Notes: generated by a model from the sequence alone, not told the origin. A DNA stretch of 62,771 nucleotides from Psammoneis japonica (GCA_008632985.1 QPGO01000268.1:1-62771); one strand, 5' to 3'; counted from the first letter of the stretch, positions 3,825-62,771 are shown. Numbers and translations are program-made.

Positions 3825-4310
3825 TGAAGACGAGGCATCTGAGCGTGAGAGAAAAAGAAAAAATCTCAACGCACCAGTGAATAATCTCTACACCATGGAG
3901 ACTATTGCTGTTTGCAGATCAAGTTTTTGCAAATCTTCTGAACATTGAACTCCAGTGCGACAGCCAATTGATGGAGGACACAAATGATGAGACTTGCGCG
4001 CGCATGCGACATCCAACATGCGATGCGTGATTTGCTCGATGCCGCGGGGAATTTGATGGACTTTTGGCGCCAAATGCATGCACGCAATTGGTGGTTTGTT
4101 GTGGAGGGCCGCGTGATCAATGCAGGGTGTTGCAACAGAGTCTCATCTTGAACAAAGCACTGCACCAACATTTGGCTTGAGTTGGAACTTGCCGCACAAA
4201 ACACAGAGGCAGAGGTGGTGTGACACCGCAGCGAGCGAGTGCGTTGTAAAACAGGGACCGCGACTGTTCAAAAGTTCGCCTGGATCGTGGAGCATTGCAC
4301 ATTGATGCAT

Positions 4311-5310
4311 TCATTCACATGCGCACATCATGCACTTGCAAGTGACAGCGCCATTTTCAATAAAACCCAAATCATTGCCCTTTCCCTTTTGGACCGCCGA
4401 TGTTTGTTCTTGTGGTGCCGCCTGCAAGACCGGTTGTGGTTGCTGCTCGGCAGTCGCAGCAGCAGCAGCAGCAGGTTGTTGTTGTTGTTGTTGCGTGGGT
4501 GCTGGAGGATGTCCCGGTGGAGATGCACCCCAATGCCCATGGTGGGCTGCATGGTGGGGTGGTGGAGGAGGTGGGTGCAAGTGTTGTGGTGGTGCAACAG
4601 CAGCTCCAGGAGGCTGCTGTGGGGGGCTGGTGGCGACTGCTGCAAGAGGAGCAGGTGCTCCGCCTGCACCTGGTGTGCCAGCAGCTGCAGCAGTCGCAGT
4701 TGCACCAGGAGCAGCAGCTGCAGTTGGTGGAGCACACTGTTGTGGTGGCGGCGGTGCCATGTGCGGATGAGGCTGTGCTGGACAACATGCCGGCGGTCCT
4801 TGCGGTGGAACCCCTGCTTGTCCCGGTGGTGGTGGTGGTCCCGTGGCTGCCGCAGACAATCCAATGGGCTGCATGGCACAAAAGTTGGGCTCCGTGTCAG
4901 GATCACACTTGGCCTTGTTGGCAAGTCCCTTGACCTTGGTGCGCTTCATGTTGACGCACAATCCCGGGCGTCCCTTCAAGAACAATTTGTGGCAACAGCC
5001 GCCGTTGTCTGAGCCTTGACTGATGCGACAGAATTCTGAAAAAGAAAAAAAGCAAGTGAGTGTGAATGGTGTCAGTGCAAAAGACAGAGCAGCAACCACA
5101 ATGAAAACCAACAATGAGCAACAGTTGAAAAAAACACACCACATAAATTCAATTGTCGCTGAAAGGACGTGAGTCTTGTTTGTTGAAAAAACCATGGCAC
5201 AATCTCCGCCACAAACCGCCGTGGCTTGTGAATGGCAAAGGCCCATCCATGCGGAAAGAACGAAACCACGTCTGCCTTTCCCTGTTGTTTGGCAAACTCC
5301 AGGAACACTG
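4311..5310 (-). pseudogene. Heat-shock transcription factor (HSF DNA-binding domain), hypermutated and 5'-truncated copy
   Basis: ADVVSFFPHGWAFAIHKPRRFVAEIVPWFFQQTRLTSFQRQLNLCG, intron (about 5037-5137), then FCRISQGSDNGGCCHKLFLKGRPGLCVNMKRTKVKG..DPDTEPNFCAM. This matches the diatom HSF consensus SFQRQLNLYGF..GGYYHELFL..PNFY with Tyr>Cys. P/Q/A-rich tail with (gca)n/(gtt)n runs at 4456-4492. Confidence 0.85.
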
Positions 5311-5536
5311 ATGAAAATGTCGCCAACACAAAAAAATGCGACATTTTGCACCTTTGAGAGACATGTTGACACATTCTTTAATTGTCTTTGGTTCATTGTG
5401 ACTCAGTCAAATGACATGTGCTTGCCATTGTTTGCATGAGACTCCAACAATGTCGCCAAAATCTCCAACAGCACCCAAGCATTCAAGCTTCCTTCCTGTG
5501 TTAACATGCGAGTGTTGACAACAAGTTTTGGCAGAG

Positions 5537-5690
5537 GGAGACACATGGAGACAAACAGAGACAAACGGAGACACATGGAGACAAACGGAGACACATGGAG
5601 ACAAACGGAGACAAACAGAGACAGTGCATTGAGGAGACAAATGTGGAGACTTTTTAGCAAGAATTTGGAGACACAAACAGAGACATTCAT
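5537..5690. repeat. 10-bp minisatellite (ggagacacat / ggagacaaac / agagacaaac)
   Basis: About nine near-perfect units at 5537-5623 and degenerate units to about 5690. Confidence 0.9.
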
Positions 5691-6129
5691 TTGTGATTGT
5701 TCCATTGTAGAGATTGCAATTGTCAGCATGTTTGTCAAAACATGTGTGTTGCTTTTAAAGAAGACATTTTGATGACTGTCGACAAGACACATCATCGAAA
5801 AATCCAAAAAACACTGGGTTGATGATGAGTGCATCAAAAATGCCTCTACGGTGTGGGGATCTTACTTCACACCACACCAGTGCCGGGGCTGCTGCTGATC
5901 GGTCCGTTGAACATTGTGTTGGACATGACCTTCTCCAACGTCCATCCTCCCCTTCTCGGCAATCATCCATGTGGCGACAGCACCCTTGCCAGGAAGCAGG
6001 TTGCCATTCTCTTTGAAAGAGACTGCCTTGCAGTCGATCACAAAATTGTGTGCTGTGGAAAGAGTGTGATTGTCCAATCGCTCTGAATTCAAAAGGAAAA
6101 GAAGAAGAGCAAATTTGTGGCAAGTCTCA

Positions 6130-7020
6130 CAACAGCAATGAGAGCTTTGGACAGCTTGCAAGCAGTGTTGACCGAAACGAACCCAAGTGAGGTAAATTTC
6201 ATTGCCATCTTTGCTGAAGAAATTGATGTCGAAGTTGTCAAGCAATTGTGCCGAGCCCCTCTTTGATTGCAGCATTGCAACATTGGTTCAGATGGAATGG
6301 TCCATTTGTCTCAAGCCCTTTTGTTGCTCCCAATGCTGTCTCTCCTTGATGTAAGTGGCAACAAGATTGGGGACGACGGTGTCTAAACGGCATTGGCCCT
6401 GAGGGTGTAAAATCTTTGGGCAAAGTGCTGGAGCAGAACACAGAAATTGATGTGGCCCACCTTGCATGCAATGCAATTGGCTGTTGAAGTGCAGAATGCA
6501 TTGGAAAGATGTTGCCAAAAAATTGCAAACTGATGATGTTGTGGTTGACGAATTGTTGCACAGGGCCAAAGGGAGCCACAGGGAGCCATTGCAGTGGCCA
6601 GGAGCTTGAAAGAAAGCTCATCCATTGATGCTCTTTATCTTGACAACAACTGCATTGGAGATGGTGGCGCAAGAGCCCTTGGACAAATGCTTGTGCGAAA
6701 TGACAAAATCACGTGCGTGCGTGTGATGCGTGCCTCTTTTGGAGATGATGGGGAGGCGGCCCCAGTGGACGGCGTGAAGCAAAATGTGAGCGTCAATCCT
6801 CGCCTTTTATGGAATGGCATTTGTGAGGAGCTTGTGTCTGAGATTGAAAGGGACCGTGAGCTGTTGCGGCGCATTTTGCTGTTGTTGCATCGTGACTCCG
6901 TTCCCAACAGCATTTGGGCCAAGGTGTTGGCACTGGTTGGCGAAAACCCCAGCCTCTGTTGCCTTGTCATCAAGGCCAAACCTGAGCCAGTCAAGAAACA
7001 AACGGCACTCTCTTTACATG
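6130..7020 (+). pseudogene. RNI/NLRC3-like LRR protein pseudogene (same family as 47347-48255)
   Basis: LRRs LQHCNIGSDG, LLDVSGNKIGDDGV, NGIGPEGV, LYLDNNCIGDGGARALGQML. C-terminal SVPNSIWAKVLALVGENPSLCCLVIKAKP aligns with IPIGLWPLVLGRIKDRPSLIYFFLISKP. Contains stops and frameshifts. Confidence 0.75.
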
Positions 7021-7889
7021 ATGTTCAGAACAGCGGGTTGGCTCTGAATTCGAGGAGTGTGGGATGTGTGGCACATGAGACACAACCACAGTGTCACTTT
7101 GTTTTTGTTGTTTTCGCAAATGACCGACAACAATTTAGTAAAACAAACCACCTGTGTTTTTGTTTCCACCAAAGCCCACTCTTCGTACAGCACAGCTAGA
7201 CCAGTCTCTAGCAACCGACACTCTGTTCTTCCACGCGAACAAACCGACCTCTGAGTCGACTTGACTCATTGGCTTTGCGGCTTGTTGCAGGCATTCTATT
7301 TTTTGAATGCTCCCACAAGGCCTCTTGTTCACATGGAGTTGAAATGGTTGCTTTTCCAGTGAGACACTGCAACACACTGGCAGTTTGAAATGGAGACCAC
7401 AAGTGGGCCATGCGCAATCTAACCACACAATGGTGGAAACAAGGACAATTTTTAACAGCATTCTGATGGAGTGCACACTCTTGATCGTTTCTTGTAGATG
7501 GGTGCCTCCGGTTTCCCAAATCATTCTTCACATAAAAGAGATCAGAAACGCAGCTGATGCAACACGAACGCACCTTCTCCCTCTTTCCAGCGATGCAATC
7601 TCTACCTCCCATTCTTCTTCATTGCTCCTTGTTCAATCCATTCTGCACTTCAGCCTCTTGCAGTCAAGCTTCATTGTCTTTTTCTCAATGCTTGCACACA
7701 CTGGCCATGTGCTGATCCAACAGTTTGCACTGGACACATGCACAATTGGCAATGCTCTCACAGGCAACCCTTAGAGCGGCAAGAAAGAAACGACTCCAAA
7801 AGGTTGATCTCCTTCAACTCGACAATTCAACAGACACACCGGCATGCAGGTGACTTCTTCAATTGATCAACGAATCCATTCTTGGGATT

Positions 7890-8900
7890 CATTTCAGGTC
7901 CTTGAAGGAATCAACCATCACAGACTTCATTGTGTCTCGTGAGATGACCAGGCCGCCCTTCTTGCACTGAAGAGCGTGTTTCATTGCTAATTTGCATCCA
8001 CATCCATTGCAGTGCTCCGGGAGGTCAGGTGGAGCACAGTCACACCGCAGGAAGAGCACGTCACAGAACTCTTGGCATGAAAGTTTGGCGCCATTCAGTG
8101 TTGAAGGGCATGCTGAAAGCCACGCGCCAGTCTTGGTGCTGCGCTTGACAGCTCTGGTCTGGAGGTTGGGTGGGGTCCTGAGGATTGTTTTGAGGGTCTC
8201 CCCTTGCATCACAACTTTTTGATTGGCTGCTTCTTGCTTCACTTTTTGCACGGTGTCCTTGTGGGCTGCAGAGAAGAACTGGGAGTGGCTGCACAGTGAG
8301 TTGATCATGTGGGAACACATGAGAGTGCCTGCTCCACAGTTGTGAGCTGCGGACTCAGTTGGACAAGGGACAGACAGTCCCAAAAATTTGATTGGGAGGG
8401 CGGATGGGGCTGGTCTTGGGTCATCATCGGCTGGGGTCTCGCCTGCAATCTGCACCAGCGAACGACTTGCCACAGTCCTTCACTGCACGTTGGACATGTT
8501 GCCGCTGGTGTTGCAGGGACTTCTGCAGACCAGCACAGGCAGTCTGAGGTTGATGAATTGCAATTTTGGCATGTCTCTGGACAACCAAGGTCCACGACAC
8601 TTGGCTTTTTCTGCTGGCCATCAGTCGCGTGCATTGGTCTCTCCAATGAAGCCTCCGCAAGACAGTGGCTGCCAGACTTGATGGTAAAGCCTGGATCTCC
8701 AAAGCAGGCTCCAGCATTTTCCAGGTTGCGTTCTGGGACTGCTGGGATGTTCTTGGAGTTGTCGGCAGGGCAGCAGCTGTGTTTGGGGCTTTCAGCTTGG
8801 AGAGTGAGGAAAAATTCTCGCAGGGTGGTGAATTTCCCTGCTGCTGTGGAGTTGGAGTCATTGGCACACCAAGGCATGGGTGCATTTCACGGACCAGTGG
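7890..8900 (-). mobile_element. Degenerate non-LTR retrotransposon fragment (CRE/SLACS-like RT and Cys-His region)
   Basis: PWCAND (8857-8868, for YADD), ESPKHSCCP (GPKYGYYP-like), SGSHCLA (RYLG-like), KTGAWLSACPSTLNGAKLSCQEFCDVLFLRC..CNGCG..HALQCKKGGLV. Several frameshifts. Confidence 0.75.
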
Positions 8901-9398
8901 AAGAAGTCCTGGCCCGCATGCTGTGTTCGGATCTGCAAACAAGGGAGGGGATGCAAACCTGAAGCACACCAGAGGAAGCTGTGAAAGTGCAAGCAAAATC
9001 CATGCCCCAATCTTCAAGATCCCAGCACTCATTTTCTAATTTGTTCATTGAAATTCATGCAAAAATGTAGAATCTAAAGTGCACGATGTTTTGATGAAGA
9101 ATCTCACGTGGCATTGACACCCGACACCAACGCTCGAGATGGCAAAGAGATGCTGTTTGTGAACAAGCAAAACAGGAAGGTCTTTCACAAGCACAGAGAC
9201 AACAGTTCAAAGCTCGTTGGAAGATCGCAATCGACAGCACCAAAATGAAAAAGCTCAAAAACATCAAAACACAGTGAACACGCGCATCTCACACATCAAG
9301 GATGGACGGACGATGTTCTTCAGACGGCCGGTCGACGCACGGGCATCGATTTTCTGGGTTCGGCCGGGTTGTCATTGATGTGATCATACATCAACACC

Positions 9399-10024
9399 AT
9401 GATTGTCTACAAGTGCCACTTTGCCAGAGATGAAATGCTCTCCGATGCCTTCAAGCCTCATCCTGCTGTAGATGAAGAAGGTGACGAGGTTCCTGGATTG
9501 TTTGAGATTGATTCCACAAAGGTGAACAAGGTGCAGCATGCTTGTGTTTGGTCCTCTCTCTTTTGTTTCCTTTTGCGCAAGTCAAAGCTCACAAACTCAA
9601 GAAAACTAAAATCAGGACTCTGGTGGCTCCGTTGACATTGGTTGTGGAAACGAATTTGGTGGAGGAGACGCTGATCTCGATGACGGGGCCGAGCTCGTCA
9701 ACAATGTTGTGGATGAAACGATTGGATTCGATTTGCACGAGATCCCCTTGAGAAAGAAGGATCTCAAAGAGCACTTGGGAGCACACTGCAAGGCACTTCG
9801 ATTGAAACTGAAGGAGGACGAAAATGTTCCGGGACCACAAGTCAAGGCTTTCACACAAGCCGCTCCAGTCTTTTGCAAGCATCTGCTCAGCATGCACTCG
9901 GAGCTTGAATTTTGTGCATCTGCCTCAATGGACCCCGACGGATCCATGGCCTTTGGACTGTGTGAGGAGTGCCAACCCCACTTTTGTTCACATCAAGGCC
10001 GGGCTTCTCGAAGAGAAGTGCTAG
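9399..10024 (+). pseudogene. TCTP: Translationally controlled tumour protein (TCTP), hypermutated intron-containing copy
   Basis: Exon 1 9399-9530 (MIVYKCHFARDEMLSDAF..), intron 9531-9615, exon 2 DSGGSVDIGCGNEFGG..VNNVVD..LKEHLGAHCK..LEFCASASMDPDGSMAFG, frameshift near 9965, ANPTFVHIKAGLLEEKC*. Positions normally Tyr are His/Cys. Confidence 0.9.
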
Positions 10025-10496
10025 ATTCACCCTTTCATTTCTCAGATTCATTTTTGATGCTGCAACACGGTTTCCTCTCGCATGACTTGCTGTGGTTTGG
10101 GTTTTCGGTTTTGTAAATGATGTGACTCGCGACTGTGAAAGACTTTTGCATGAATTCTGTTTCGACTGTTTGCCAATTCATGCCTGTCTTTTGCATGCAG
10201 AGAGCCAACATTTAGAATGCAGTCCTTTGCTTTGCTGGGAGAAAGCTAGAAGTTGTGCGTTGATCATGAAGAAGACTGCTTCATCCTGGAAAGGAACAAC
10301 ACCAGCTCACTCACAAGAAGTGCCCCAAACAATGCCAATGTTCAAGAGCATGTCAACGTTCGAAAGTCTTCAGAATCAACAGTCTGAAGTCAACAGGCAA
10401 CAGAATCTAATCCAGCTCGTAGAATTTACACCGGTCTGTCAATGGCAGCGAAGTTTTTTTTGCTCTTCAAAAATCTCGACACTGAAAACACTTGTC

Positions 10497-10561
10497 GAAA
10501 ATCGGCTTTCGTCACCCACTACATGACACCAAGTTGCAGTGGGTGACGAAAGCCGATTTTC
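10497..10561. repeat. 27-bp inverted repeat with 11-nt spacer
   Basis: gaaaatcggctttcgtcacccactaca (10497-10523) and tgcagtgggtgacgaaagccgattttc (10535-10561) are 26/27 complementary. Confidence 0.9.
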
Positions 10562-11799
10562 AATGTCGGCCATTGTGGAGGCTCCAGAACAACAGCAAAG
10601 TCTAGAAAAAAACTGTCCCTGAGTAATTTGTGCAGCATCCAAATCTGTGTGACCTTTCCGAACTCCGGATTAAATGTCATGTTTTTTATACATTAAATGA
10701 TGGAACACAAACACAAATGTTAATTGGGGACAATCGAACACAACAGTCATTTTTTCTTGAGCAGCCAACAAGTTTTCAATGAAAAACATTCGCTTTCTAG
10801 TCACCCCGACCGATGCAACATGCGTTGGACCTTGTTCAGCTCGTCACGAGCTTTAGATCGACACATGGGTTATGGGGTCTGCGAGGTCATCCTAAAAAAA
10901 CTTCTCAACCATTGACAGACTGTCGGCACCGAACAGGAACGCGACTCATTTAACGGCGGCTTTCAAGAAGTGCGTGCAAGCATCTTTTTTCCACTGGCTA
11001 GAGCACTGTAGCCTCTGCCGGTGCTGCAGAGTCTTTGCACTGCATCATCCAGTCCCGCGGCTGCCGGCACTTGCAACCCACCACTCAATGCGCACAAATT
11101 GTGCCGAGTGAGAACGCGAATTATTTGGTGGCTTTCTGCAGCATCATTTTTTAGTCCCGCGGTGCCGCGGAATCCCTTTGCTGATTCCCGGCAACCGCAT
11201 CAGCTGATCGATCAGCACCTCGATGGCGTGCAACAGCAATCCACAGCACTGGATCTGTCCAGAGAGGGTGCACAATGGACAGCAGTGTTTTTGCGCCATG
11301 GAAGTGGCAGCCAACAGAGGCACTGATTTGTTGTGACCATGTGCGACTTTCCCCCTTCAAGAAAGGAAGGTTGTTGAGTTGGCTGCAAACTCAGGAGCAA
11401 GGAGCGTCCCTGACTGTGGGCCTTTGGGTTCAATCCATGCAAGTTCTGGACCACCTGCGTGGCTCCAGCATCATGGTTGACTGCTCTCCCAGCTGCTTGG
11501 TTCCTTCCAACGTGCCTCCAGCCCCCTGACCAGCAGCCACCTCACTGAGCATCACCCCATCAAGTCATGCGCTGGCAGCAGCACTGCAGAAGTGCCCCAG
11601 CTCTAGGTGGGACCTCGCATCACTGAACTGTGACATCAACAATTTTTGGATCCTGCTGTGCATGCACACAACTGAGTGACTTTGGTGGAATTTTGCACCA
11701 TTTGCAGTGCAACTGTTCGGCAACCTGTTCAACAACATTCAATGTTTTCTTCTTCCGCGCCATTCAAAAATGCCTTGAGAGCGGTGCAGGGCAGGCAGA

Positions 11800-13400
11800 T
11801 TTTCAAAAACTTTGACTGTGGACAGGCACACATGCACTGCTGACTTGGCTGTTCATTGTTTGATGTTGAAGACAAAATTGTCCATTGACAAAATTGTCAC
11901 ACTGCAGGGCTTGCACATGGAGCTCTGTGGGCACAATGCCAAAAATGCCCCACCCAGGCAACTCAAGGGTGCATGGAGTCCATGAGACAAACCATGGCTG
12001 CAACCCCACCCCCTTGCTGTGGATTCACATTGTGCTGACACTGCACCCACTGCAGTCACTGTTGATGCTGTGACAACTGCCCACCCATCACTGCACACTT
12101 CAACTCTGATGTCCTAGAGCTCATCTCTTTGATCAAGTGCATTGTGGCCTGCATCTCTGTTCATCATCATGGGGCTCACTCCCACTCTGGTTGAGAGGGA
12201 GAATGCAAAGCCAAGAAGAAGAAGAAGAAGAATCTGCAGCACTTCCACTCCAGATGGAACCAAATGCAAGCTGGCCCTTGTTGCCCTTTCCTTTGTTGTT
12301 GCACTTCATTTGAGAGGCAACCAAAGCAAAAGCATGCGCTGTTGGGGCCAACTGAATCACAATTGGAGGCACCATGCTCTCTCCCATTGCCAAGGCTTGC
12401 CTTGCTTCTGCCACAAGATCCAAGACCACCTGCGCAGATTGTTGTCACTGTTCAAGGATGCCTTCCATGGAGCCAGCAGCAGTCATCACAAAATGGACCA
12501 CTTCTCCATCATTTGGGACTCTGGTGCCAGTGTCTTCATCTCCACATGCCATGCAGATTTCAATTGTCCCGCTGAAAAGCCTGCTTGGTCAACCCACCAT
12601 CAGCAAGGGTGCCAAGGTTGCAGGCACGGGGCACATTGTGCGGTCCTTCATTGACTGCACCAGCATGATCTGCACCATCAAGATTCCAGCCTGCCACACA
12701 CTGGATGCAAACATTCAACTGTTGAGTGCTGCAAGTCTTTTGAAGACATGCGACAAAGAGATGATCCAATTTGGCCCACAGTGCCCTGCCTTGGTTGGTG
12801 GCCCACATCCAGATGATGGAAACAATCCGACCAGCCCAACTGGCATCCTGTGTGCATCTCGAAGATCCCAGAAAATCAATTTTTGGATGCAGTTGCCCTT
12901 GCTGCCACACTCACCACCACATCCAAGCACAACAGCAAATCAATGTGTCAATGATTGCCAATGGAAAAAGGGCATTTGTGCAAGTGCACAAACACATCCA
13001 TGGTTGAAGTGCGTTGCATTTCTTGCTTGACCAGGTGCACTCTTCAGACATTGAAGAACACTCCTGGCACATTGTTGTGTCCCCTGCAAATGTCTTGCAT
13101 GAGAAGTTCTCTTGTGCTTGGCAAAACAAGGAGTTTGAAACAATTCTTTGGAAGAGAACAAGTGGAAAAGCATGTGCAACAATGCACATGACAAATGACA
13201 AAAAACAATTGTGCCATGCTGGCTTTTGCAAGGCCCAGCTTCTCATGAGAACTGGAGCACTGGCACACTCTGAGAGCACCCGCTGTCTCCAGATGGCCAC
13301 CTGCAAGATGATGAAAGGGGTCCCACATGTGTGCCAAGTGCCAGCGCAAAACAATGTTGCTGTCCCAGCCAAGGCAAGTTGTTGAATGTTGCACGCAATT
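11800..13400 (+). mobile_element. Heavily degenerate Ty1/copia (CoDi-like) remnant: protease and GAG-pre-integrase
   Basis: FSIIWDSGASVFIS (aspartic protease DSG, about 12500-12540), AKVAGTGHIVRSFID..TIKIPACH..IQLLS, LCHAGFCKAQLLMRTGALAHSESTR (pre-integrase). Frameshifted, boundaries approximate. Confidence 0.65.
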
Positions 13401-14539
13401 GACAGGGATGAAACATTCATGGCATTGATGGTTTGGCGGGCATCTTAAAGACAGGCTGCAGATTTTGGGGCTTTCCCACTGCTCAGATCTCCCACAAACA
13501 CTCAGGCATTCCTGTCAAATGGAGAGGGCGCCACACCCACTGGCACCATGTGTTGTGCTGTGTGGTGATGAATGGATGTGCTTTGTGCCTGGGTGATCTG
13601 CCTGAGCATTGGGCTCCTCAGCCAGGCTCTTGTTTTGCAGTTGCTCACAGGTCCACTTGGTGCCTGTGCTGTTGAAGGTGTGAATGCTGCTGGGGGGCAA
13701 TGTGATCATGAAAAAATTGTGCTGGCATTGAATTTTTTTTTTGCCAAACCTTTTCTCTCTGGTGTTTGACAACTTTGACTGGGAGAGGGAAAGCACACAG
13801 CGCCACCTTGTCAGTGACAGCAGTGTTGACAATTCCAACAAGAAAGCACCCTGTTGTGCATCCAGAATTGGGAATTTGCTGAGGAATCACCTCCAAGCAC
13901 AGAGAGTCGCAACGTCGGAAAACTTGGTCACACTGTCCGTCCATCACCAGGCATCAGAGGTCAAAATCTGCGGCGATGCTCTTTTCGATTCACAAGGCCA
14001 GTGGCGGCTGTCTCAAAACCAAGCTTCAAGCTGCTAGAGAGTAGAACCGATCGTCATCTCCAAGTTGTCTCCCACGCTCAGCATGTCAAACACAACTGTG
14101 GGGAAACATGTCTGTCCACTGTGCCCCCATTCCGGCATCAACACATCGAGGTGTGCTGTCGACACCAAGGTGGCATGCGTGCATCGCAGTCTCTGGACCA
14201 GGCACTTTCCAAGAGGAGACTAGACAAGTGTGTCACAGGTTCATCATCAACATGGATGATCAGGGAAATCTGTTTGACGACATGGAATCAGAGCGGATTC
14301 CCACGTTTGCAGAAGCGCAGAGAACTGAGCACCAGGAACAACAATGGAACGACTTGCTCTTGTCTTGGAACAGAAGCAAGAAGACAACAGTTCAACAAGA
14401 TTCAGATGCCGAGGACTCTGACGATGAAGGTCTTTCAGGCTTGTGTGATGCTGAAGCATCTTCTTGGATTGCCAAACTCGAAAAGCATGACTCTGCAGAA
14501 GGGCCAAGGAATTGCGAAAACTCCGAAGTTACGCCCATC

Positions 14540-15200
14540 AACGCCACTCTAGCATGACGTGGACAAGCACAACTGCGACGAGTCCTGTGAGCCTGCAGCA
14601 CACACATGACACCAAGGTGAGGCATTGTCAAGGAATGAATTTCATTGCTGCCACTTTTTTCACCTTCATGTGCGAAGATGAAGCACTGTGGTTGTTGGCT
14701 GGCATGTCAGTTTTTGTTGGCATTTGCTCTTTTTCCGATGCATTGTTTCTTGCCATTTTTGTTCCTTCTCAAACCGCAGCCACTGTGAATGATCCACCCA
14801 ACCAGATGTGAGGAATGTTCGGCAGGGATGTGCAAGCAGCGCACCAGGTGTTGTGTGTGGCTGACAAACATTTTCATCAGCTTCTACTTCGTCTTGCCCG
14901 GCATTTGGAGAAGGAGAACGTCTACATCATCACATGTGCAACGCAATGGTCGTTGACATTGTACACGAGCTCTTTTCACCTTGATTTAGTGAGTCGCGTG
15001 TGATTTTGTATTCTTGCCGAGGGATGGAAGGTCATCTGCCGCATCATGCTAGCGCTCATGACATGTTCCAACAAACCTTGGAGACGCTTTAGCTTCGAAG
15101 ACATTTTGGCTTGCCTTCACCATCTTTCCGATGTGGTTTCCAGTGAGAAATAAAATCTCAATCGCAAACACACTGCCAGGCATGAGAAGGAGTGGGTGAC
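14540..15200 (+). pseudogene. Rab-GAP TBC-domain gene, C-terminal half, hypermutated
   Basis: HDTKVRHCQGMNFIAATFFTFMCEDEALWLL (GYCQGMNF motif), intron about 14702-14779, LARHLEKENVYIITCATQWSLTLYTSSFHLDLVSRV, LAEGWKVICRIMLAL, FEDILAC..RKHTARHEKEW. Contains stops and frameshifts. Confidence 0.8.
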
Positions 15201-15735
15201 GAATGATGCGGTCCTCAATTCGATCCATTCGTCTCACGGCAGCATTTTGACGCAATCAAGGCCAGCTTCAAAGACATGCTCGAGAATTCTGGGGGTGTGA
15301 TCCGCTTGGCACACAACTTGGAGCTGCCATGTGTGAGAAGGAGTGGGTGAAGATTGTGCGGTCCTCAATTTGACTCATTCGTCTCACTGCGGCATTTCAA
15401 CACGATCAAGGCCAGCTTCGAAGACATGCTCGAGAATTCTGGGGTGTGATCCGCTTGGCGCATTGCTTGGAGCTGCACTGGGTGAAGCACTTGGTGCTGG
15501 ACTCAAACTTGAAGAAATTTTGGCTCACTTTTGCCATCTTTCCAGTGTGATTTCCAGCGAGAAAATAAATCTCAAGCGCAAACACACTGCCATGTATGAG
15601 AAGGAGTGGGTGAAGATTGTGCGGTCCTCAATTCGATTCATTCATCTCACTGCATCTGCTGGACCCTGACACCTGCATGTCGACGCAAGATCAAGGCCAG
15701 CTTAAAAGAAATGCTCGAGAATTCTGATTGGAGAC
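15095..15735. repeat. Imperfect triplication of the TBC 3' end and downstream sequence
   Basis: Core gagaaggagtgggtga..gcggtcctcaatt..caaggccagctt..atgctcgagaattctg starts at about 15184, 15335 and 15598. The TBC coding part is duplicated at about 15097-15195 and 15511-15609. Confidence 0.85.
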
Positions 15736-15739
15736 TTGT

Positions 15740-16850
15740 TGTTCAGCTGCTGCCAGGTGCTGGACTTGCACTTGAAATCGTGGATGGACTGCTGGGCCCT
15801 GCTGCGCAGGTTCTGGCCTCTTGCTTGGTGTTGCCAATGGTGTTGCTTGGAGCAGGACTGGCACCAGGGGGTGATCCACTTGGTGCATCACTTGGAGCTG
15901 CACTGGGTGAAGCACTCCATGCTGGACTCAAACTTGGAGGCAGCATCATCTGCATTGGTGCGTCACTTGTTGCTGATCTTGCGCTGGGAGCATTGCTCGG
16001 TGTGGAATTCAGAGCAGGGCTTGCACTGCCAGGTGATCCACTTGGTGCATCGCCATGAGCTAGACCGCAACTTGGTGACACACTCAAAGCATCGCTTGGT
16101 GCTGGACTTGAACTTGTGCTGCTTGGTGCTGGACTTGTGCTGGGAGCATTGCTTGGTGCAGAACTCGGAGCATGACTTGAGCTCGGTGACTTGCTTGGCA
16201 CCGGACTGCTGCTTGGAGCTGCACTGGGTGCCTCACATGGCTCCGGACTTGAACTTGGAGGCACCGTTGTGTGCGTTGGTGCATCAGTTGGTGCTGGACT
16301 TGTGCTGGGAGCATTGCTTGGCGTGGAACTTGGAGCAGGACTTGCGCCAGGTGATTGACTCGGCGAATCACTTGGCGCCGAAGTGCTGCTTGGAGATGCA
16401 CTGGAAGTCTGCTCTGTGGAGGACTGCGACTCGGTGGTCGGGTGAACTCCAAGCAAGGCACCAACTCCTGCCAAGCCTCAGTCTAGCACCGAGTGACTCG
16501 CCCAACGAGTCTTGAAGCAGCAGCCCCATCCAACGCGAGTCACAAACGCGCGCGACCGGCCTCCAAGTGTGAGTCCTGCCAGCGAAACATCCAGTTCTGT
16601 CCTGAGCAGCAGCACTGCACCGCTGAGGGTTCTGAACTCGGAGATGAACTTGGTGCTGGACTTGCACTGGGAGAATTGCTTGGTGCCAAACTGGGAGCAC
16701 GGTCTGCACTTGGTGTTCCACTCGGGGCTTCACTTGGAGCAGGGCTGTTTGATGGAGCACTCCTTTCGTTTGATGTAAAGATTGAGCGCAAGGCCCAAGA
16801 ACATGCCAATGAGATGAGCAACAGAATTCCTGACGGCATTGTCTGCCGCA
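15740..16850 (-). pseudogene. Pro/Ser/Thr-rich (APSxxPS repeat) secreted or cell-surface protein remnants
   Basis: ORFs 16540-16926 (signal-like MPSGILLLISLACSWA, then APSNSPAPSEAPSGTPS) and 15743-16474 (SPSQSPGASPAPSSTPSNAPS). A further fragment lies at about 17380-17560. Disrupted and TpA-depleted. Confidence 0.6.
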
Positions 16851-18312
16851 TGCTTGCCAGAAAGAAAAAGAGCAGTGTGGTGTGAAAACAGAAACCATCA
16901 CATTTAAGTGCGCAATGACATCGCAAGTGCTGCGGCCGTCATCGCAGTCCATTGACGCACGCACAGAAAATGAACAACACACCAACAAAGATTGCTGTGC
17001 TGCACTTTTAGCATTTCTACTTCTATCGTAAAAGTTCAAAGCATGTTGCAAAAAATTGAAACACGCCAATGTCAAAAGCAGCTGTTAAAATCGGTTGCGC
17101 AGGATGACATTGCCTCAAAAGCGCCATCAGAAGATGGATCTAAAGCTTTTTCATGTCTTCAGGTGATGGGGATGGAGTGAAAAAGTGCAGCCTGAAAACA
17201 ACATACGAGAACAGATGCCTCAGTCAAAATGATGAGGAAAGAGATGGCTCGCGGTCCAGTGGCTCTTGGCAATGGCAAATCCCATCGAAGTGCATCTTTG
17301 GTCGATTCTCTGTTTCTTTCCTTGTGCATCTTACGAGATTCATCATTCATGTTCATCGTCACAGCACGAATTGCTTCCAAACATTGCTTGGTTCTGCTGA
17401 TGGTGCTTTTGATGGCACGTCACTGTGAGCTGCACTTGGCATTGCAGAGGGAAATGCCGAGGGCTCCGTCAAAGGGTTGGTCGTCACATCACCAGCTGGC
17501 CGAGTGGAAGGATCAGTCAATGGGACTTTGCTGATTGGCAAAATCGGGACAGCTGACAGGCAGGAGCAACGTTGACTCCAGGCCGGAGACACGCATTCGA
17601 CCGGCCTCCGGCCTCAACTGGCAACACCTGCGCCGCCGAGACAACACTTCGTGCAAGCAAATGAGTTGCATGACTGCCAAACAAGAGAAGACTTTCTATC
17701 ATCCAGAGGAAGGGCAAGCCATCCTCGGCGATCGCCTGCATTCCTGCTTGGCAAACAACAACACATCGTGCGAGACACGAGACGTCGAGTTGAATGTGAT
17801 CCAGAACGAAAACGAGCGCGAAAGAAGAAAGCTGCTTTCGGGGAGAAGTTGTGTCGTGACCGTTGCTAAATTTCTCAATCACTATCATTTTTGTGTAATA
17901 TTGTAGTATTAATACCATCATGTCGTATGTAGAACATGGGTCGGAAGTTGGTAGGCACTTTCAAAATGAAGTCATCGGGTCATCAGCTCAGTCTCTCCAC
18001 GTAAAACATGCGGAGAAAAGACAAAATTGATTAATCAACAGTATCCTGCTATTTATCACAGTCATTATCCCATCAGAAACAAATAACAACAGAATCCAAT
18101 TGAGGCAATGGTTCCTTGAATGTCATTTCGGGTCATAATGTCCATCAAAGTTGGTCACGATTTTTGGAAGCAAACTCAGGTCGAAATTATGCGCATCCTA
18201 CATGTTGTGTTGCTTCCCTTTCGAATCCATTACACCTACATGTTAATTAAAAGCATTTATACTTATTTTGTATCATTACATGCTCATCAGTGCCTCTGTT
18301 GTAAAAAACACA

Positions 18313-33684: not shown

Positions 33685-33889
33685 TTAAGAAAAACAACAT
33701 TTCATCCTGAAAGGGCATTTTCCCCATTTTCACCCAGCACCCCAACAGCATGCAGGGCCAACTGCGTTCTGCTCACTTTTGCAGCTTGGAGGCAAGGATG
33801 CACACAGCTGCTTGTGCAAAGCACAACAACTCTGATGCAATTCATCATGCCTTTTCTCTTTGGCTTGACCGCTTTCACTTTTCACATTG

Positions 33890-35300
33890 CAAAAAAGCCC
33901 TTCCTTGCCATCTTGAACTTCAAAGGCAGCAGACCACATCAACACCACATTGGCTCTGGCAAAAGAAAGTTTGGCTGCGCCAATGCTTGGGTGCTTTGCC
34001 ATGAGACATTGCATCAAAGCATTGCATTGAATGGCAATTTCATTGGAGTTGATCTTTCTTGTTTGGTGCAGAAACAATCTGCATTGAAGATGCAGCATGG
34101 CGTGATTGCAGAAGGGATGCAACGTGCTGTGCAGCAACTCCAGCCACCACTTCTGCAGCACCACATCTGCCAATCAACAGGTTGGGTGTTTCACCACAGC
34201 AAGCAACAGTGCCTTGGCCCAATTGACAACAAGCAGTTTCAACTCCACCAGGTGCATCCACAAGAAACCATGCCAGAAGTGTCAAATGTGGCATGACTGC
34301 ATTGAAAAAGCTGTTGGAATCACAGACACCTGGCACAGGTGATGCATCGTTTCACTTGAGGGTTTTGTTTCAAACACTGCTTTGGCCCCTCTTTGGAAGC
34401 TTCACAAGATGGGAATGGCCAGCAAGTTTGGACAAACAGAAAAATCACAAGAAATGCATCTTGCATGCCATGGGATGCTGGTCAAAAAGATGTCAACAAA
34501 AAGCCAGTTGGTGCTGGCACAACTTGAGCTCACCTTTCCCACAGATTTGCTTGGATTGACAGCTGTTGAGCAAATCCCTGCCACCCCTGCTGCCATGGAG
34601 ACATGTCCCAATTCCCAATCCACCAGCTGAATCATTCTCCCCAGAAGACAACCTGAGCTCAAGAGCTGAGTGGCTTGTTTGAACAAGGCTGTGTTCTCAT
34701 CAAGAGCTGTCCCTTCCTGCCAAGAAGTGAAGCCCAGATTTGCAGGCCATCACTCTCTGCTTCTCATGCTGCTGCACTGTTTTCCACATTGCCAGCCCAT
34801 GATCTGACCTCACACTTGTTTGCTCAAGCCTCTGCTGTGTTCTTGTGGTTCTTGCAAGACTGCAAATCATTCACATGTGTTGTTTTCTTGTGCTTGAGAC
34901 TGGGCTCTATTTTGGCCGGCACATCATCTGCTGTGAAAGTGCTCAATTTTTTGTTCTCTTCTTTTTTGTGGCTTTGATTGTTTTGCAATGTTTTGGCGCT
35001 GGATCGTGCGCCCCAGCATCACATGACAACTCTCGCCAAGATGCAAAACAGACCACGCAAAGAGAGAAAAGGACAGAGGGCCCATGGGCAAAGAGAGCAA
35101 AGTCAGTGATGAAGCAACAACAGCCAAGAGATCATGGCCGCAGGTGCCAAAAATCAAAACTTGGAAAGCAACATGAGATTGGAAGCCACAATTGCCGGGT
35201 TTGTGCTTGTTGAGAAAAAAAAAACAAATCCAGCCACCAGTGCACTCCAGCCAATGTAGACAACCACCACCAATGAGATGGGCTTGGGTGCGCTCACACA
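33890..35300 (-). pseudogene. Hypermutated paralogue of the methyltransferase-like gene at 37522-38989
   Basis: ATQLLSSG..ELGHVSMAAGVAGICSTAVNPSKSVGK vs AIQFLNSG..GSGHVSMAMGMAGIQSTVVDPRESVGK, and CNALMQCLMAKHPSIGAAKLSFARANVVL vs YIDLLQYLMAKHPSIQASKLPFDGANVVL. Same intron position. The 5' limit is approximate. Confidence 0.85.
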
Positions 35301-37378: not shown

Positions 37379-37521
37379 ATCTTGATGAATTCCGGGGTTC
37401 TTGAGAGTTAGAGTTTAAAGTGAACAAAACGAATTTTGTGATTTTCCGTTATTCACCCAAAACCTTAGGCGCCCAGCAATCTTCGTCGTTCCACCTTGTA
37501 GAACATGTTACTACCTTGCTT

Positions 37522-55466: not shown

Positions 55467-58400
55467 AGTCACGACTCAACGTCATTCTGGTCACATCTCA
55501 CGACTGCAACCCAGACTCAGATTTTCTCTTCAAAATGGTTGGCTCATCACAAAATCGATTCAAACAGAAGCAACGACATTCGTCACAATTTTTAGACAAC
55601 GACTTTGAACAAGCGTCTGTTTGCCTCTGTTGCTGCTCACATTGCTGCCAACCTCCGAGGTCTTGTCCATCCTACCCAGCTGCAGGACTGCATCTCGACT
55701 GGCCACAGAGACCAATTTGCGCATTGACGAGAGCTCCTGACCGAGTCATCGTCACGGACGCTTTCGGTTTTTGATTTTGAAGCAAACCCGGGAAACAGCT
55801 GAGTCTCTCTCGCTTCTCTCGTCTTCACTCTAACAAGAGCCTCTCATGCTGCACTCTCTGTCATGGCTGCCATCGATCCGGCTGTTCTGGCGAAGGCGTT
55901 TGCCGACGCAATGGCCGCCAACGCCGCAGCGACCGCTCCTCCGGCTCCAACCAAGCCGTTGCATGGTGGAATTCACCCAACCCACGGGGTTTACATTGGT
56001 GGTTCCAAACTCAACAACAACTGCGAACAATCCAACGATGGAACCTGCCGACTCGCCTCTCAGTGCCGTCATCCCAAGGCTCTCGACTCGACAGAACGAT
56101 CTCTCCGCGATCAACAAGCTTCCGCAATGACTTCCAAGTTCAACGGTCGACTTGAGATTTTGGACGGTCCCATCAACGAGCTTGACAAGGACCATTTCGT
56201 CAAGATCATTCGAGATCTAGTAGAAGCCCACGGTCAGCAGACGTTCTGCCATGTCAAGAACAGCGACGACAAGGTTCAATGTATCTTCGACCATCTTCAC
56301 GAGTTCACTGTGACCGATCTCGTGAACAAGCACACGGTTGGGAAAGCAGCTGCTGATGACACCAAGCACGACGAGATCGAGCTCGACGACATCGGGCTCT
56401 CTCAACTTCTCGTTCACTCAAGAATCACTGACACCTTTCGCGAGAAAATCGAGACCAAGTTCAACCATCTCTCGGACTGCCAAGACTGCCCTGGATCTGT
56501 TCCATTCATGATGGCTCTCGACACTTGCAACACTGGCGCTCTGACGGACATTGAGACGGCTAAGAAGCAGCTAGAAGACCTCAGTTTGGTCAACTGTCCC
56601 GGCGAGGATTGCACGGACTTTGCTGCCGAAGCTCTTCGCATCGTGAAAATCATGCAGACCGACTGCGCGCTTCCGGCAAACACAAGCTCCAAGCTGCTCC
56701 ACAAGATCTCCTCTGCGTCCTCTGAATGCTTCAATCGCCAAGTCTGCAACAAGCTCGACGACGTCAAGGCTATGGAACGCAAGCACCGCCTCAAGAATCC
56801 TGCTGACATCGTGTCCGACAGCGATTGCAAAACGCTCAGACCGGTCGGCATCATTGCATGGATTCAGGAGCAACACAACGAACTCGTGAAGGACAGGGAG
56901 TGGCCTGCGTTGGTCGCCAAGCTACCCGAGAGTAATCTTTCGACTGCGGATGACCCTGGGAAGACAAAGCACTGTCATGGTTGCGGTCTCGAGGGGCACA
57001 CCAAGAAGACGTGCCCGAAGTGCAACGCCAAACCGCCGCGCGACGATCCTCCTCCCAATCCGCCGCCTGCAGACGACCCTTCCAAGAAGAAGAGGCGACC
57101 CATCGCTGCCTGGCGTGCTAAATTTGACGGAGAAACGAAGAAGGACAAGAATGGCAAGGAATGGAAGTGGTGTGCCACGTGCATGGCGAAGGGTGCCGAC
57201 AAACCTGGAATCTGCCAGAAGCACTCTACCGCGGAACATGCCGACGACCACAGGCACCCTCCCAAGGAGACCCCAGCCGGGAATTTGTCTTCCGTTGCTG
57301 ATCCGGACAGTGGCGTGCCCATGGGTCCGCCCGCTCAGACTGCCAAGGAACCAGAGGGAGACGAATCCGACCCCAACGAGTTGGTTTTCACGGGAATGTG
57401 GTGCACGGCTGCGGATGCCGTTGCCGACCCGGAGTTCTGTTCCGCCCCTGTTGCTGCTGCATTTGTTGTTCCTCCGGCTTCTTCGGCCGAGAGGGAGAGC
57501 GACACAGTCGTTAGCACTGAGGTGGTTTGCAACGAAACGAGCCCACCTGCACTCACCTCAGTCGTGGATCCAGTCGTGTCTCCCATCGTGGTTGAGACTG
57601 TCACTCCCGAAGACGCCGATGACTTCTGCGAATGCTCCGACGCTTTCTCTACCTTTGAAAACGAACCACCAGCCATTGAGTTGTTTCCGGCCTTGAAGCT
57701 GCACTCTGTCAAGCATCCAGATGAGTTCTTTGACGCTCCCGCACATTTGACGGATGTGCTGTCAGACGACACAAAGTTGGGTCTCATCCTTGAACACGAC
57801 GTACACTTTGAAGACGCATGCTACGACTTGCCTCCGTGTGCCACATGTCGTGGCTTCGATTTCTACGATCCAGAGGTCCTGGACACGGATGATTGTCACG
57901 AGGACGTCGAAGACGAGCCCACTTCGCGTCGCTCACTTTTGGGACGAGTCAAGCCATTCACATTCTGGCTCGCCGCCATGTTTTGGGAAACGGCACTGCA
58001 TCTTTGCTTTGCTCTGATCCCTTGCATCCCTCGAGCTCTACGCCGCCAGTGCAAACTCCCAACTTTGCACGGGTTTCCAGCCTCCTGGATGGTCCTGTCC
58101 GTTGCAGTGATGGCATGGTCAGCAGTTTGCGCCGGTCAACAGCCCGAGCATCCATTCTCGAACGCACCAAGTCGTTTTTCGACCGCTGGCTCTCAAGTCC
58201 ACCACATTGTGGAAGAGCTAGATGACCGGATAGTGTCAGATGCGGGGTCACTGTTCGAATGTCACAGGATCAAAGGCACGCAAGCACTCACCGAGTTTGT
58301 CGCGCGCCATCCGTCACACGCACTGAGCACTCGTCTCAAGGCCTGCTGGGAGAGCCCAGAAGTCGCTGAACGGTCGGATGCGATAGACGAATCAGCCTTC

Positions 58401-61400
58401 TTTGACACCTGTGAGGAACTGGAACCTCTCAACGACTAGAAGCATTTCTTTGACGCTCTTGAGGACTTCAGCCCGGATTTCTTCCGGTTTGACGAGCTCT
58501 GTCTGCCGAATCACATCGTGGACACTGCCCAATTTCAAGATCCTGTGGAACTGTTGGAGGAAGCAAGTGTTAGACCAGTCGTCTACAATGCCTCCACCAT
58601 CCAACTGCTCACCGGACAATCACAAGCCGACCTCCTTGCATCCGATCCGCAGGCACTCATCGGTCTGTCAGACGAGGCTCTCACGGTCGTCATGGACACT
58701 GGTGCCACGTTAGCCATTGCCCCCGACAAAGATGATTTTACGGGGCCCATGACTGTTCCCAAGAAACCCTTGCAGATCAATGGGATTGCCAACGGTCTCA
58801 CCATCCAGGGTGCCGGTCCGGTTGCATGGGTGTTCACAACGCCGAGTGGGGCTGCCATCCAACTGAACACCATGGCATGCTACGTCCCTGGAGCCCGTCA
58901 GCGCCTGCTGTCGCCTCAATGCCTCTTCAACGAAGAAAAGGGGGTGCGTGGGAAGTGCGAGGGCGATGAAACCACTTTCCGTTTACATGTTGACGGGACA
59001 GGCAAGTTGGTCGTGCCATGTCATCCATCAAGCCACTTGCCCATTGCGTCGATGACCAAGGGCGTCTCTGCCGCTCCTCAAGTGAACCTGCAGATCCTCA
59101 ACGAGGAGAATCAAAACCTCACGGCAGGCCAAAAGCTTCTTCTCGAAATGCATGCCCGTTTTGGCCATTTGAACTTTGGTCGCGTCCAAGCACTTCTCCG
59201 CGCAGCTCCGTTCCTGTCGAACCGTTTCAAGTCCGCAGCGAAGTGTGACCACCCAAGATGCGAGGTGTGCGAACATGCTAAAGGTCATGGACACTCCCTT
59301 GGATCTACTCACAAGTCGACAGTCCCTGAACGCGACGGGGCCCTTCGAGCTGACCATCTTCGACCGGGTCAGGCTGTCAGCATTGATCATTTTGAGTCGC
59401 GCCTTTTGGGCCGCACCTTCGACTCACATGGCAAAGCCACGTCCAAGCAATTCAAGGGCGGTTGTGTCTTTGTCGACCACGCCTCTGGCTATGTCCAGGT
59501 CAAGCACCAACTGGGTTTCTCCGCTGTTGAGACGATGCGAGCGAAGCAAGCGTTTGAGAAACATGCTTTGGACCACGGGGTCATCGTCCAAGAATTTCTT
59601 GCCGACAGTGGCGCTTTCAAGGCCAACGCTTTTGTGCAACACACACGAGACCATGAACAACGTCTCCGTTTCTGTGGAACCAACGCCCATCATCAGAACG
59701 ACGTTGCAGAGCGGGGCATCCGAAGCATCTCCAACATGGCGAGAGCGATGTTGCTTCATGCATCAATCCACTGGAAGGGGGGAATTGACAGCTCCCTGTG
59801 GCCCATGGCAGTTTCTCATGCCATGCACATCTACAATGTCACCCCAAATTCCAAAGGACATTGCCCAGCGGACATTTTCACTGGTTCGACAGTGCCAAGA
59901 CATCGGTTGCGCGACATTCACACATGGGGATGTCCAGCGTGCGCACTTGATCCGACCCTCGCTTCTGGGAAGAAACTCCCGCGTTGGGAGCCTCGCACTC
60001 GTCGCGCTTTGTTCGTGGGACTCAGCACCATCCATTCCAGTGAGGTTCCTTTGGTCCTCAATCTTCAAACTGGAAGTGTTGCTCCTCAGTGTCATGTGGT
60101 CTTTGACGATCTCTTCACTGCCGTGCCATCAATCGAGAGGGAGACGGATCCACCTGATCACTGGGAACACTTGTGCCTCAACCAATCGACATGCATCCCT
60201 CTGGAGAAGGATCAAGCAGTTCATTCACACGATGAGTGGCTTGCCCCTCCAGAGCGTCAACGTAAAGAGCGAGAACCAGCCAGAGCAACACGCACTCGCG
60301 GCCATTTTGAGCCTGCTCCATCGATTGCTGTGCCGGATTCACCCACTTCTCGTGACGACATTGCCGATCGAGTCGCACCTGCGACTCAGCAGCCAACGCC
60401 ACCAGCCCCATCTACAACTCAAACTCCTGCAGACTCTGCGGACTCTACACCAATTCAGCCACCTGAACCTCAAGACAGTGACGGACTTCCGCCACCCGAA
60501 GCGCCGACGGAACCAACAGCTCCTCCCCCAGTCGAGACACCTCCCACGACGAATCCAGAGGGAGTGCCAGGGCTGCGACGGTCTTCACGGTCAACCAAGG
60601 GACAGTTCAACTCTGCCAAGTTTGTAGATGAGGTCTGCTTCAGCTCCGTCGAGGAAATGCCGCTGCCGATCGGACACGAGGCTCAGCCAGCGCATCTGGC
60701 GACTCTCGAGACGGATTTGGACAGTGGTGCCATCAATGTCGGCGATCCACGAGCCTGCGCGGCTAGTGAGAAAACCAAGGACCCTGATGTGCCTTCGTTG
60801 CACAATGCTCTGAAAGGTCCGGACACCGACGAATGGATTGAGGCGATGAAAATTGAAGTCAATGCACTCATGCATCGTCGAGCCTGGAAAGCAGTCGAGC
60901 GTCAGCTGCACATGAATGTGCTTCCAGGCACATGGGCACTGAAGCTCAAGAGACTCCCAGATGGAGCCCCTCTCAAGCATGAGGCCCGACACTGCGTCCG
61001 CGGTGATTTGCAGAAAGAAGGAGTCGACCACTTCGAAACCTGCGCGCCGGTTGTGCAATGGTCCAGTGTCCGACTCATGCTCACTGCGGCATTAAAGGAG
61101 GGATGGACTGCACGTCAGGTGGACTGTGCCACAGCCTTTTGCCAAGCTGATGTCGCCGAGGAAGTTTGTGTCACACCGCCGAAGGGATTTGCGCCAAGGT
61201 CGGGACTCAATGTGGTTCTCAAACTTTTGAAAGGACTGTGCGGCCTAAAACAGTCTCCCAAGGGCTTCTGCGAGAAGCCACGAGCTGGTTTAACCGAGCG
61301 CGGATGGGTGCCTTCAGCCACAGATCCCTGTTTGTATTTCAAAGAGGGCATGATGTGTGTGGTGCACGTCGACGACACCGTTTTTGCTGGAGCTTCAGCT

Positions 61401-62510: not shown

Positions 62511-62771
62511 TGACAGGATTTGAACAGGATTTGGGTGCGCGCGAAGTGTCGCGCGCTGTTTAGTTTACCGTGCACAGTTTTGTGTGCTTTAGTTCCGCGC
62601 GTTCACGCGCGATGTAGTTTGCTTTCGAGCCACAAGGCTCACAAGAATGATGACAGCAGCCCGACCACACCGACTTGCACGTCTTTCGGCTCCTGCAACG
62701 GTCTCTGAGCGGAGACTCATCTGCCATTTAGACAGCAGTAAGGAGTCATTGTTTGAATTCTTGCCATTTGC
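62511..62771. mobile_element. Probable terminus of a second element inserted into the Copia 3' LTR
   Basis: Identity to the 5' LTR stops abruptly at 62510 and new sequence begins TGACAGG (LTR-like TG start). The other end and TSD are outside the window. Confidence 0.4.

Follow-up and report, generated by a model that had tools for sequence, protein, structure and literature searches.

Regional hypermutation at the TpA dinucleotide has been described only once, in the chlorarachniophyte Bigelowiella natans. Of 302 new nuclear mutations in its mutation-accumulation lines, 231 fell in two integrated viral regions; the new mutations were nearly all A>G or T>C and all lay at TpA, 124 runs of 1-kb windows poor in TpA and rich in CpA plus TpG were counted in the genome, and a DNA adenine deaminase was proposed by the authors (Mettrop et al., 2026, bioRxiv 10.64898/2026.01.13.699255). 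Here we describe a stretch from Psammoneis japonica (QPGO01000268.1; "the window" denotes the whole of its 62,771 nt) in which a TpA-depleted block appears to be a new case, in another lineage, of this hypermutation. The block contains a small tandem array built from the 3' tail of a RabGAP-TBC gene copy that has decayed, and at one site of the array three copies read CAT, TGT and TAT.

The locus resembles the B. natans system in several respects. Changes of A:T to G:C at TpA, giving TpG or CpA by strand, are read here within defined regions; the long-term trace is loss of TpA and gain of CpA and TpG in runs of 1-kb windows, for which the preprint thresholds are passed here; and reverse-transcriptase genes are among the TpA-poor sequences. 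Unlike in B. natans, the closest named relatives here are diatoms, which gave the best named matches of the ABC1 kinase and TCTP of the window (~50% and ~72% identity, respectively). Duplicates of host genes are among the targets here (those of TBC, of TCTP and of the gene at 37.5-38.5 kb), with the unmutated copy spared, and depletion is much deeper, with rho 0.01-0.15 at the lowest compared with 0.45 for their viral region. Loss of CpG accompanies that of TpA in three of four blocks, which the accessible portion of the preprint does not report, and new mutations were observed directly in B. natans whereas the signature is known here from sequence alone. With regard to target identity, one is a Copia element and the others are host-type gene copies (TBC, TCTP) or lack a Pfam match.

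Fungal repeat-induced point mutation (RIP) converts CpA to TpA by transitions, raises TpA and AT, hits duplicates and transposons, and mutates both copies of a pair. The pattern in the window is like RIP in being regional, in affecting duplicated DNA and transposons, in consisting of dinucleotide-directed transitions on both strands, and in leaving dead genes behind. It is unlike RIP in running in the opposite direction, with TpA near zero and GC raised, and in that a partner 3 kb away is normal. The RIP signature of raised TpA and lowered CpA/TpG was absent, as TpA observed/expected (o/e) was 0.11 and (TG+CA) o/e was 1.3-2.0 in the block. In ADAR hyper-editing of double-stranded RNA, A becomes G, preferably where a U lies 5' of it; the substrate is RNA, and DNA is altered only by way of reverse transcription. 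Such a route is possible for the Copia element, but the TBC copy has kept its intron and is therefore not a retrocopy. DNA polymerase eta produces A to G at WA on either strand, with changes at AA and transversions as well, and is sometimes coupled to repair of deaminated C. Unlike the trace of that enzyme, A>G at ApA stands at background here (0.21, compared with 0.45 at TpA). Decay of methylated CpG would explain the part of the pattern that concerns CpG (stops changed from CGA to TGA, the mirror site described below, and CpG o/e down to 0.06) but cannot remove TpA; diatoms methylate transposons through DNMT5a (PMC9998398). No report of TpA hypermutation in diatoms was found in a search of full-text literature, whose coverage left out subscription journals.

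The array lies in block 1 (Table 1), which is 13.5 kb long and has sharp edges at ~4000 and ~17500. Summed over 500-nt rows, 93 TpA were present in block 1 compared with 848 expected from base composition (o/e 0.11), and CpG o/e and (TG+CA) o/e were 0.06-0.97 and 1.27-1.97, respectively. Further sharp-edged blocks were found at ~31.2-35.8 kb (block 2) and 53.0-55.6 kb, and together blocks 4001-17500, 31201-35800 and 53001-55600 make up about one third of the window. In the blocks, TpA o/e was 0.00-0.3, CpG o/e fell as low as 0.06 and TG+CA o/e rose to 2.0, compared with 0.35-0.85, ~1 and 1.0-1.3, respectively, in normal genic parts. The preprint thresholds were passed by 19 of the 62 1-kb windows, in four runs of at least three windows (4001-9000, 11001-17000, 31001-36000 and 53001-56000), the second of which includes the three-copy site; within 4001-17000, 10 of the 13 full 1-kb windows passed. 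A small island at 10501-11000 in block 1 had TpA o/e 0.37 and CpG o/e 0.93. TAA and TAG occurred 5.0 and 4.7 times per kb in the block compared with 15.8 and 15.7 in normal DNA, and TGA 43 compared with 38. Because TAA and TAG are threefold rarer in the block and TGA is not, long open frames crowd both strands, with 119 open reading frames of at least 40 aa in 7 kb. A Pfam match at E <= 0.01 was lacking for 66 of 68 block frames; of the remaining two, one had a weak match below the cut-off.

In the array, GAGAAGGAGTGG (EKEW) is immediately preceded on the + strand by CAT at 15181-15183, TGT at 15332-15334 and TAT at 15595-15597, and the codon after ATTTTGGCT (ILA) is TGC at 15112-15114 in copy A and CAC at 15526-15528 in copy C. 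All five codon positions, as given in the initial annotation, were exact by direct readout. A second swap of the opposite sense lies 6 nt downstream of the latter pair (CAC at 15118-15120 in A, TGC at 15532-15534 in C). The array is a tandem of 414-428 nt (unit 1, 15097-15510; unit 2, 15511-15939) with an inner 150-nt tandem inside unit 1 (15173-15322, then 15323-15476), the period holding over 15183-15476 with 87% matches. Copies A and C were 84% alike between 15097-15205 and 15511-15619 and 78.3% alike over 217 nt, A and B were 85.4% alike over 164 nt, and B and C were 94% alike between 15324-15390 and 15587-15653. Copy C is offset by 414 nt from A and is in phase with it; the 151-nt offset of copy B makes its TGT a codon by homology only. 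The copies differ by two gaps, one of 1 nt that groups B with C and one of 20 nt that groups A with B, and six stops are found in the single frame 14812-15726, so that no copy is an intact coding copy. The copy-C peptide (15505-15666) had no protein relatives among 1.84 billion representatives, the 54-residue query being a weak one.

Within 118 gap-free columns shared by the three copies, 19 were variable (12 by transition), with 8, 7 and 4 substitutions per copy. Pairwise differences among the copies were star-like, and a star tree was therefore used. Two dinucleotides in these columns showed three states, namely CA/TG/TA at the three-copy site and TG/CA/CG at a mirror site (Table 1), so that each of the two processes is represented by one site. 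The majority at the three-copy site is TA (C, T, T at the first base and A, G, A at the second). Five TA dinucleotides were present in the 656 nt of 15085-15740 (at 15090, 15151, 15566, 15595 and 15703), where 43 would be expected from base composition and 25 at the o/e of 0.58 of the normal parts of the window; the TAT at 15595 is thus one of five TA left. Among the CpG sites compared between A and C, five were kept and four of nine had decayed in one copy.

The direction of change can be read from a relative of the TBC gene. Matches to PF00566 in two pieces (26.6 and 25.7 bits, cut-off 25.2) lie upstream of the array on the + strand, and a nearly intact relative, ~89% alike, was found. This relative consists of contigs ~88-90% alike over 14136-15204 in two runs of one sample, X1 and X2; X1, a public run, contains the stretch of the window exactly and may be its own source. 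No RNA run was listed as containing the stretch, and a third run, X3, yielded no contig for it. At least 37 differences separate the window from the relative, and those listed, to which the following counts refer, lie in 14172-14614. Transitions accounted for 30 of the 37. At 11 sites CpG in the relative was TpG or CpA in the window, and the reverse was never seen; among the 19 non-CpG transitions, 17 had G/C in the window where the relative has A/T, and two were reversed. At 11 of these 17 sites the relative had TA, and the window TG (seven) or CA (four). TGC at 14513-14515 and 14594-14596 of the window is TAC in the relative, and the TGA stops at 14555 and 14588 are CGA. With the listed changes applied and 2 nt omitted, the relative is open across the two stops and the frameshift of the window. 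Over the covered intervals the window had 3 TA compared with ~14 in the relative (~79% lost) and 10 CpG compared with ~21 (52% lost). The window copy therefore lost both TA and CG to TG/CA.

A second comparison was provided by the window itself. The duplicate in block 2 and the normal gene stretch from which it was copied (Table 1) share 65.6% identity, rising to 84-89% in purine/pyrimidine letters. When 33900-35000 was aligned with 37520-38600, none of the 42 TA of the normal copy was kept (19 had become CA and 15 TG), and one of its 50 CG was kept (17 CA and 16 TG). A>G per base was 0.45 at TpA and 0.16-0.21 after A, C or G, while C>T was 0.39 at CpG and 0.11-0.16 elsewhere; the ceiling of such a per-base rate is 0.5, since one hit removes the target. 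TG and CA products were near even, with CA:TG of 19:15 and 17:16 in the paralogue and TG:CA of 7:4 among the differences listed for the relative. There were 21 TG/CA swaps in this pair. Elsewhere in block 2, a 290-nt tandem at 33106-33684 (96.6% alike, 10 differences, no TA in either copy) also includes one TG/CA swap (33352-33353 and 33641-33642) and one CAA/CGG pair.

The TCTP gene copy in block 1 was compared with 33 orthologues, whose identity to it reached 75%; among the named ones, the best came from a diatom. Five positions that are Tyr in 79-94% of the orthologues read CAC, CAC, CAC, TGT and CTG in the window, so four of the five are His or Cys, and its 168-residue frame contains no Tyr. 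Beyond residue ~120 of its frame, the TCTP copy no longer follows the orthologues, owing to a frameshift or an intron. The Copia-type element had TpA o/e of 0.08-0.22, CpG of 0.81-1.04, TG+CA of 1.2-1.4 and GC of 55%. Its two long frames contained 0.3-0.4% Tyr and 4.3-4.6% His, and its polymerase motif reads HVDD, the usual motif being YVDD. The element looks dead, and its frames stay open because a change of TA to TG or CA can make no stop. Three of the four blocks also show frequent C>T at CpG. The two processes can nevertheless be told apart, because the Copia element is TpA-poor with normal CpG. Taken together, the three comparisons (relative, in-window paralogue and TCTP orthologues) indicate that the direction is TA to TG/CA and CG to TG/CA. 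GC-biased gene conversion was rejected, since the excess is TpA-specific and CpG, too, has been lost. On the same three comparisons, an origin as foreign DNA of distinct composition was also rejected.

Table 1. Coordinates of the features of the window
Feature	Coordinates	Strand	Description
Block 1	4001..17500		TpA nearly gone, CpG about halved, TpG/CpA in excess; contains the three-copy site
TCTP gene copy	9610..10113	+	In block 1; PF00838, E 1.8e-17
Decayed RabGAP-TBC gene copy	14252..15153	+	Putative start 14252 and putative end TAA 15151-15153
Intron	14702..14779	+	78 nt; 5' end GC (GCATGT) in the window
Copy A	15097..15322	+	Part X 15097-15172 (ILA-TGC), part Y 15173-15322 (CAT-EKEW)
Opposite swaps	15112..15120	+	TGC CTT CAC in A; CAC TTT TGC at 15526-15534 in C
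Mirror site	15248..15249	+	TG in A; CA at 15398-15399 in B; surviving CG at 15681-15682 in C
Copy B	15323..15476	+	TGT-EKEW; arose from part Y by the inner 150-nt tandem duplication, offset from A by 151 nt
Copy C	15511..15726	+	Start of second 414-428-nt unit; ILA-CAC, TAT-EKEW; 20 nt absent from A and B
Hypermutated duplicate	33940..34949	+	In block 2; copy of normal gene stretch 37561-38548, ~3 kb away
Copia-type element	55803..62513	+	RVT_2, E 1.1e-31; long frames of 878 and 1357 aa

We conclude that hypermutation of a dead TBC tail array, with TA to TG/CA hits at the three-copy site, is the probable explanation of the pattern. That the site began as TA is, if anything, a little more secure, given the process seen across the block. 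The initial annotation had proposed a Tyr codon hit independently on opposite strands after duplication. This is partly supported, in that TA hits on either strand are the best reading (the majority is TA, the block has lost ~90% of its TpA, and three comparisons give the polarity), but the Tyr part does not follow, as no protein relatives of the tail were detected and the copies are broken in frame. That the site was once a Tyr codon has perhaps slightly better than an even chance. In its favour, copies A and C carry the site in phase with the TBC frame, and the 9-nt insertion of the relative after 15141 is in-frame; against it, the tail lacks detectable protein relatives and TAA stands at 15151. 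The strand symmetry that had been claimed is true but trivial, because TpA is its own reverse complement. As the initial annotation cautioned, TG/CA may also come from CG, and the mirror site keeps CG. For the TGC/CAC pair, to which Tyr ancestry had also been assigned, the TG/CA swap is present but cannot be polarised, CG being about as likely a source as TA.

Rough arithmetic with per-copy losses of ~0.24-0.29 for CpG, ~0.02 for other transitions and 0.3-0.8 for TpA, used in place of a fitted model, gave a TA ancestor at the three-copy site 0.9 or more if the TpA process ran after the duplications and ~0.3 if it had stopped. By the same arithmetic, the three-copy pattern favours a process still running by ~20 to 1 (0.19 compared with 0.009). 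Starting from TA, two hits of the fast process suffice; starting from CG, one slow change is required in addition to two or three hits at CpG; and starting from TG or CA, three events are required.

The two-copy swaps (15112-15114/15526-15528 and 15118-15120/15532-15534) are products of the TpA or the CpG process, with TA and CG about equally likely; rough posteriors were 0.3-0.6 for TA, 0.3-0.45 for CG and 0.1-0.3 for other origins. An origin of both swaps from CGC (Arg by position) rather than TAC is a serious possibility, though clearly short of even. The retained CG of the mirror site agrees with it, and the per-copy CpG loss of ~0.29 estimated from the kept and half-decayed A-C sites predicts 0.4 such swaps from CpG decay alone. 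Against it, two were seen, and loss of TpA was the faster of the two processes, at ~79% compared with 52% over the listed intervals of the relative and 0.45 compared with 0.39 per base in the paralogue. Swaps also arise via short-lived intermediates, as in the old paralogue pair and the 290-nt tandem. This last route bears on the three-copy site as well, where the ancestor could have been TGT or CAT, with the TAT of copy C a recent, still unhit G>A or C>T change; the remaining copy would have come to the opposite state by way of a short-lived TA or CG. Such an origin is unlikely. TG/CA swaps are indeed common where neither TA nor CG remains (the 21 and the one just mentioned), and the TA at 15703 was created by C>A, but three events are needed, two of them in one lineage, and the majority rule gives TA.

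Derivation of the three-copy site from CGT by CpG decay is more improbable still. In this scheme methylated C was deaminated on one strand or the other, so that A became CAT and B became TGT, and a CpG hit followed by an ordinary transition gave TAT in C. The block is CpG-depleted (o/e 0.06-0.97), the same copies hold TG/CA/CG at 15248/15398/15681, four of nine A-C CpG sites decayed in one copy, and two stops of the window are CGA in the relative. However, three or four events are required compared with two for TA, including a G>A or C>T change outside CpG, a class that runs at ~0.02 per site in the copies; the rough likelihood, by arithmetic without a fitted model and before priors, was ~3e-5 compared with 0.016-0.03 for a TA ancestor. 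Chance was simulated by placing 8, 7 and 4 substitutions randomly in the 118 columns with the 12/19 share of transitions kept (30,000 trials); the consensus was the majority of the three copies, so TA was already present at the three-copy site. A {CA,TG,TA} site arose in 0.9% of trials and a {CA,TG,CG} site in 3.9%; the two occurred jointly in 0.03%. Context-free transitions that happened to fall on neighbouring bases of three neutrally drifting copies are thus close to refuted, for although transitions dominate everywhere and a replacement transition of a Tyr codon yields only His or Cys, the simulated frequencies of the pattern, alone and with its CpG mirror, are low and the dinucleotide figures of the block and the paralogue cannot come from context-free change.

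Several points weigh against hypermutation at TpA as the source of the three-copy site. The listed differences from the relative (14172-14614) end upstream of 15112-15114, 15118-15120 and 15181-15183, and the relative is known from contigs of one sample that may be the source of the window. The paralogue alignment is old (68.5% identity, 106 transversions, many gaps), and some of its columns are possibly misaligned. The TA pattern was seen at one site in the 118 three-copy columns where ~5-7 TA would be expected per unit at normal density, so most TpA loss preceded the duplications, and activity after them rests on the three-copy site and two ambiguous swaps. TG/CA pairs of the same kind also arise by CpG decay within these copies, as the mirror site proves. 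Ordinary T>C outside TpA occurred in the copies at 15224 and 15225, and TAT could be a newly made TA, as the TA at 15703 arose by C>A. Finally, no deaminase gene was seen here, and the process is recognised in this genome by its signature in the DNA and not by mutations caught in the act.

The TBC gene copy itself reads as dead, with TGA at 14555-14557, 14588-14590, 14809-14811 and 15001-15003 and a 2-nt insertion at 14600-14601. The hallmarks of RabGAP-TBC proteins are a glutamine finger, YxQ, and an arginine finger, IxxDxxR. The first reads HCQ in the window, and the second was not found by eye. The H of HCQ and the C at 14935-14937 align with Tyr in solved TBC proteins. No further TBC gene was found within the window, and none of 18 candidates passed as a relative of the piece 14812-15000 among longer proteins. 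A metagenome scan with the TBC peptide gave 593 pattern matches, none of them confirmed, and one with a degenerate 32-nt DNA pattern gave no match.

One X2 contig lacks exactly the 78 nt of 14702-14779 (104 skipped, with 26 letters between), which identifies them as an intron; it could represent either a transcript or DNA of a copy devoid of the intron. Origin of the GC at the 5' end of the intron from GT through a hit at TpA would fit. In one X1 contig, 15186 is followed directly by 15623-15687 and next by 15406. Because of these joints the relative has one unit, not three, and also has the 20 nt of copy C. Compared with the window, the contig of the relative has 1 nt more after 15068, 1 nt less at 15088 and 9 nt more after 15141. 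The first two amount to a compensated shift over 20 nt, and the third is in-frame in the TBC tail. Downstream of the array, at 15743-16938, Ser/Pro/Ala-rich open frames on the minus strand, with a signal-peptide-like start near 16846, face Leu/Gly/Ala-rich frames on the + strand; both strands are open, and either, if any, may be coding. Repeats with a 12-nt period in this region are arranged differently in the contigs of the relative.

The following course of events would account for these observations. The dead RabGAP-TBC 3' end would have grown into a small tandem array, with unit 1 carrying A and B (the latter by the inner 150-nt duplication) and unit 2 carrying C. Two dinucleotide-directed processes would have acted in the 13.5-kb block, one taking TpA to TpG/CpA near completion and the other taking CpG to TpG/CpA about half way. 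The first would turn the A of TpA into G, so that a hit on the + strand reads TpG and one on the - strand CpA, as follows from TpA being its own reverse complement. Copy C would have kept its TA (TAT), and the hit would have fallen on the + strand in copy B (TGT) but on the - strand in copy A (CAT). By analogy with the proposal for B. natans, the chemistry may be deamination of adenine in DNA, while loss of CpG probably reflects decay of methylated cytosine in silenced DNA. Duplication or silencing may mark the block for attack. Because the Copia element was spared CpG loss, the order suggested is TpA loss first, with CpG decay following later in silenced DNA.

More broadly, and with somewhat less than even confidence, we suggest that this diatom-like genome runs a RIP-like defence of opposite chemistry. 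Extra gene copies and mobile DNA would be marked regionally and the adenines of TpA turned into G on both strands until TpA is gone, with methyl-CpG decay proceeding more slowly. Since the original copy is spared even at 3 kb, the extent of attack would be bounded by an epigenetic mark and not by homology alone. If this is true, it would add a second lineage with TpA hypermutation, the first with host gene duplicates as prey, in which dead elements keep long open frames because the TpA change can never create a stop.

These results have consequences for annotation. TAA and TAG vanish in the blocks, so long false frames are to be expected on either strand; His or Cys stands in place of Tyr, and any splice site or motif containing TA is lost. 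TG/CA differences between copies should not be read as CpG decay by default. The matched pairs of mutated copy and spared parent make the trigger, whether duplication, silencing or foreignness, testable. The full signature in a genome whose nearest named relatives are diatoms would mean either an old defence shared across the SAR (stramenopile, alveolate and Rhizaria) group or repeated invention.

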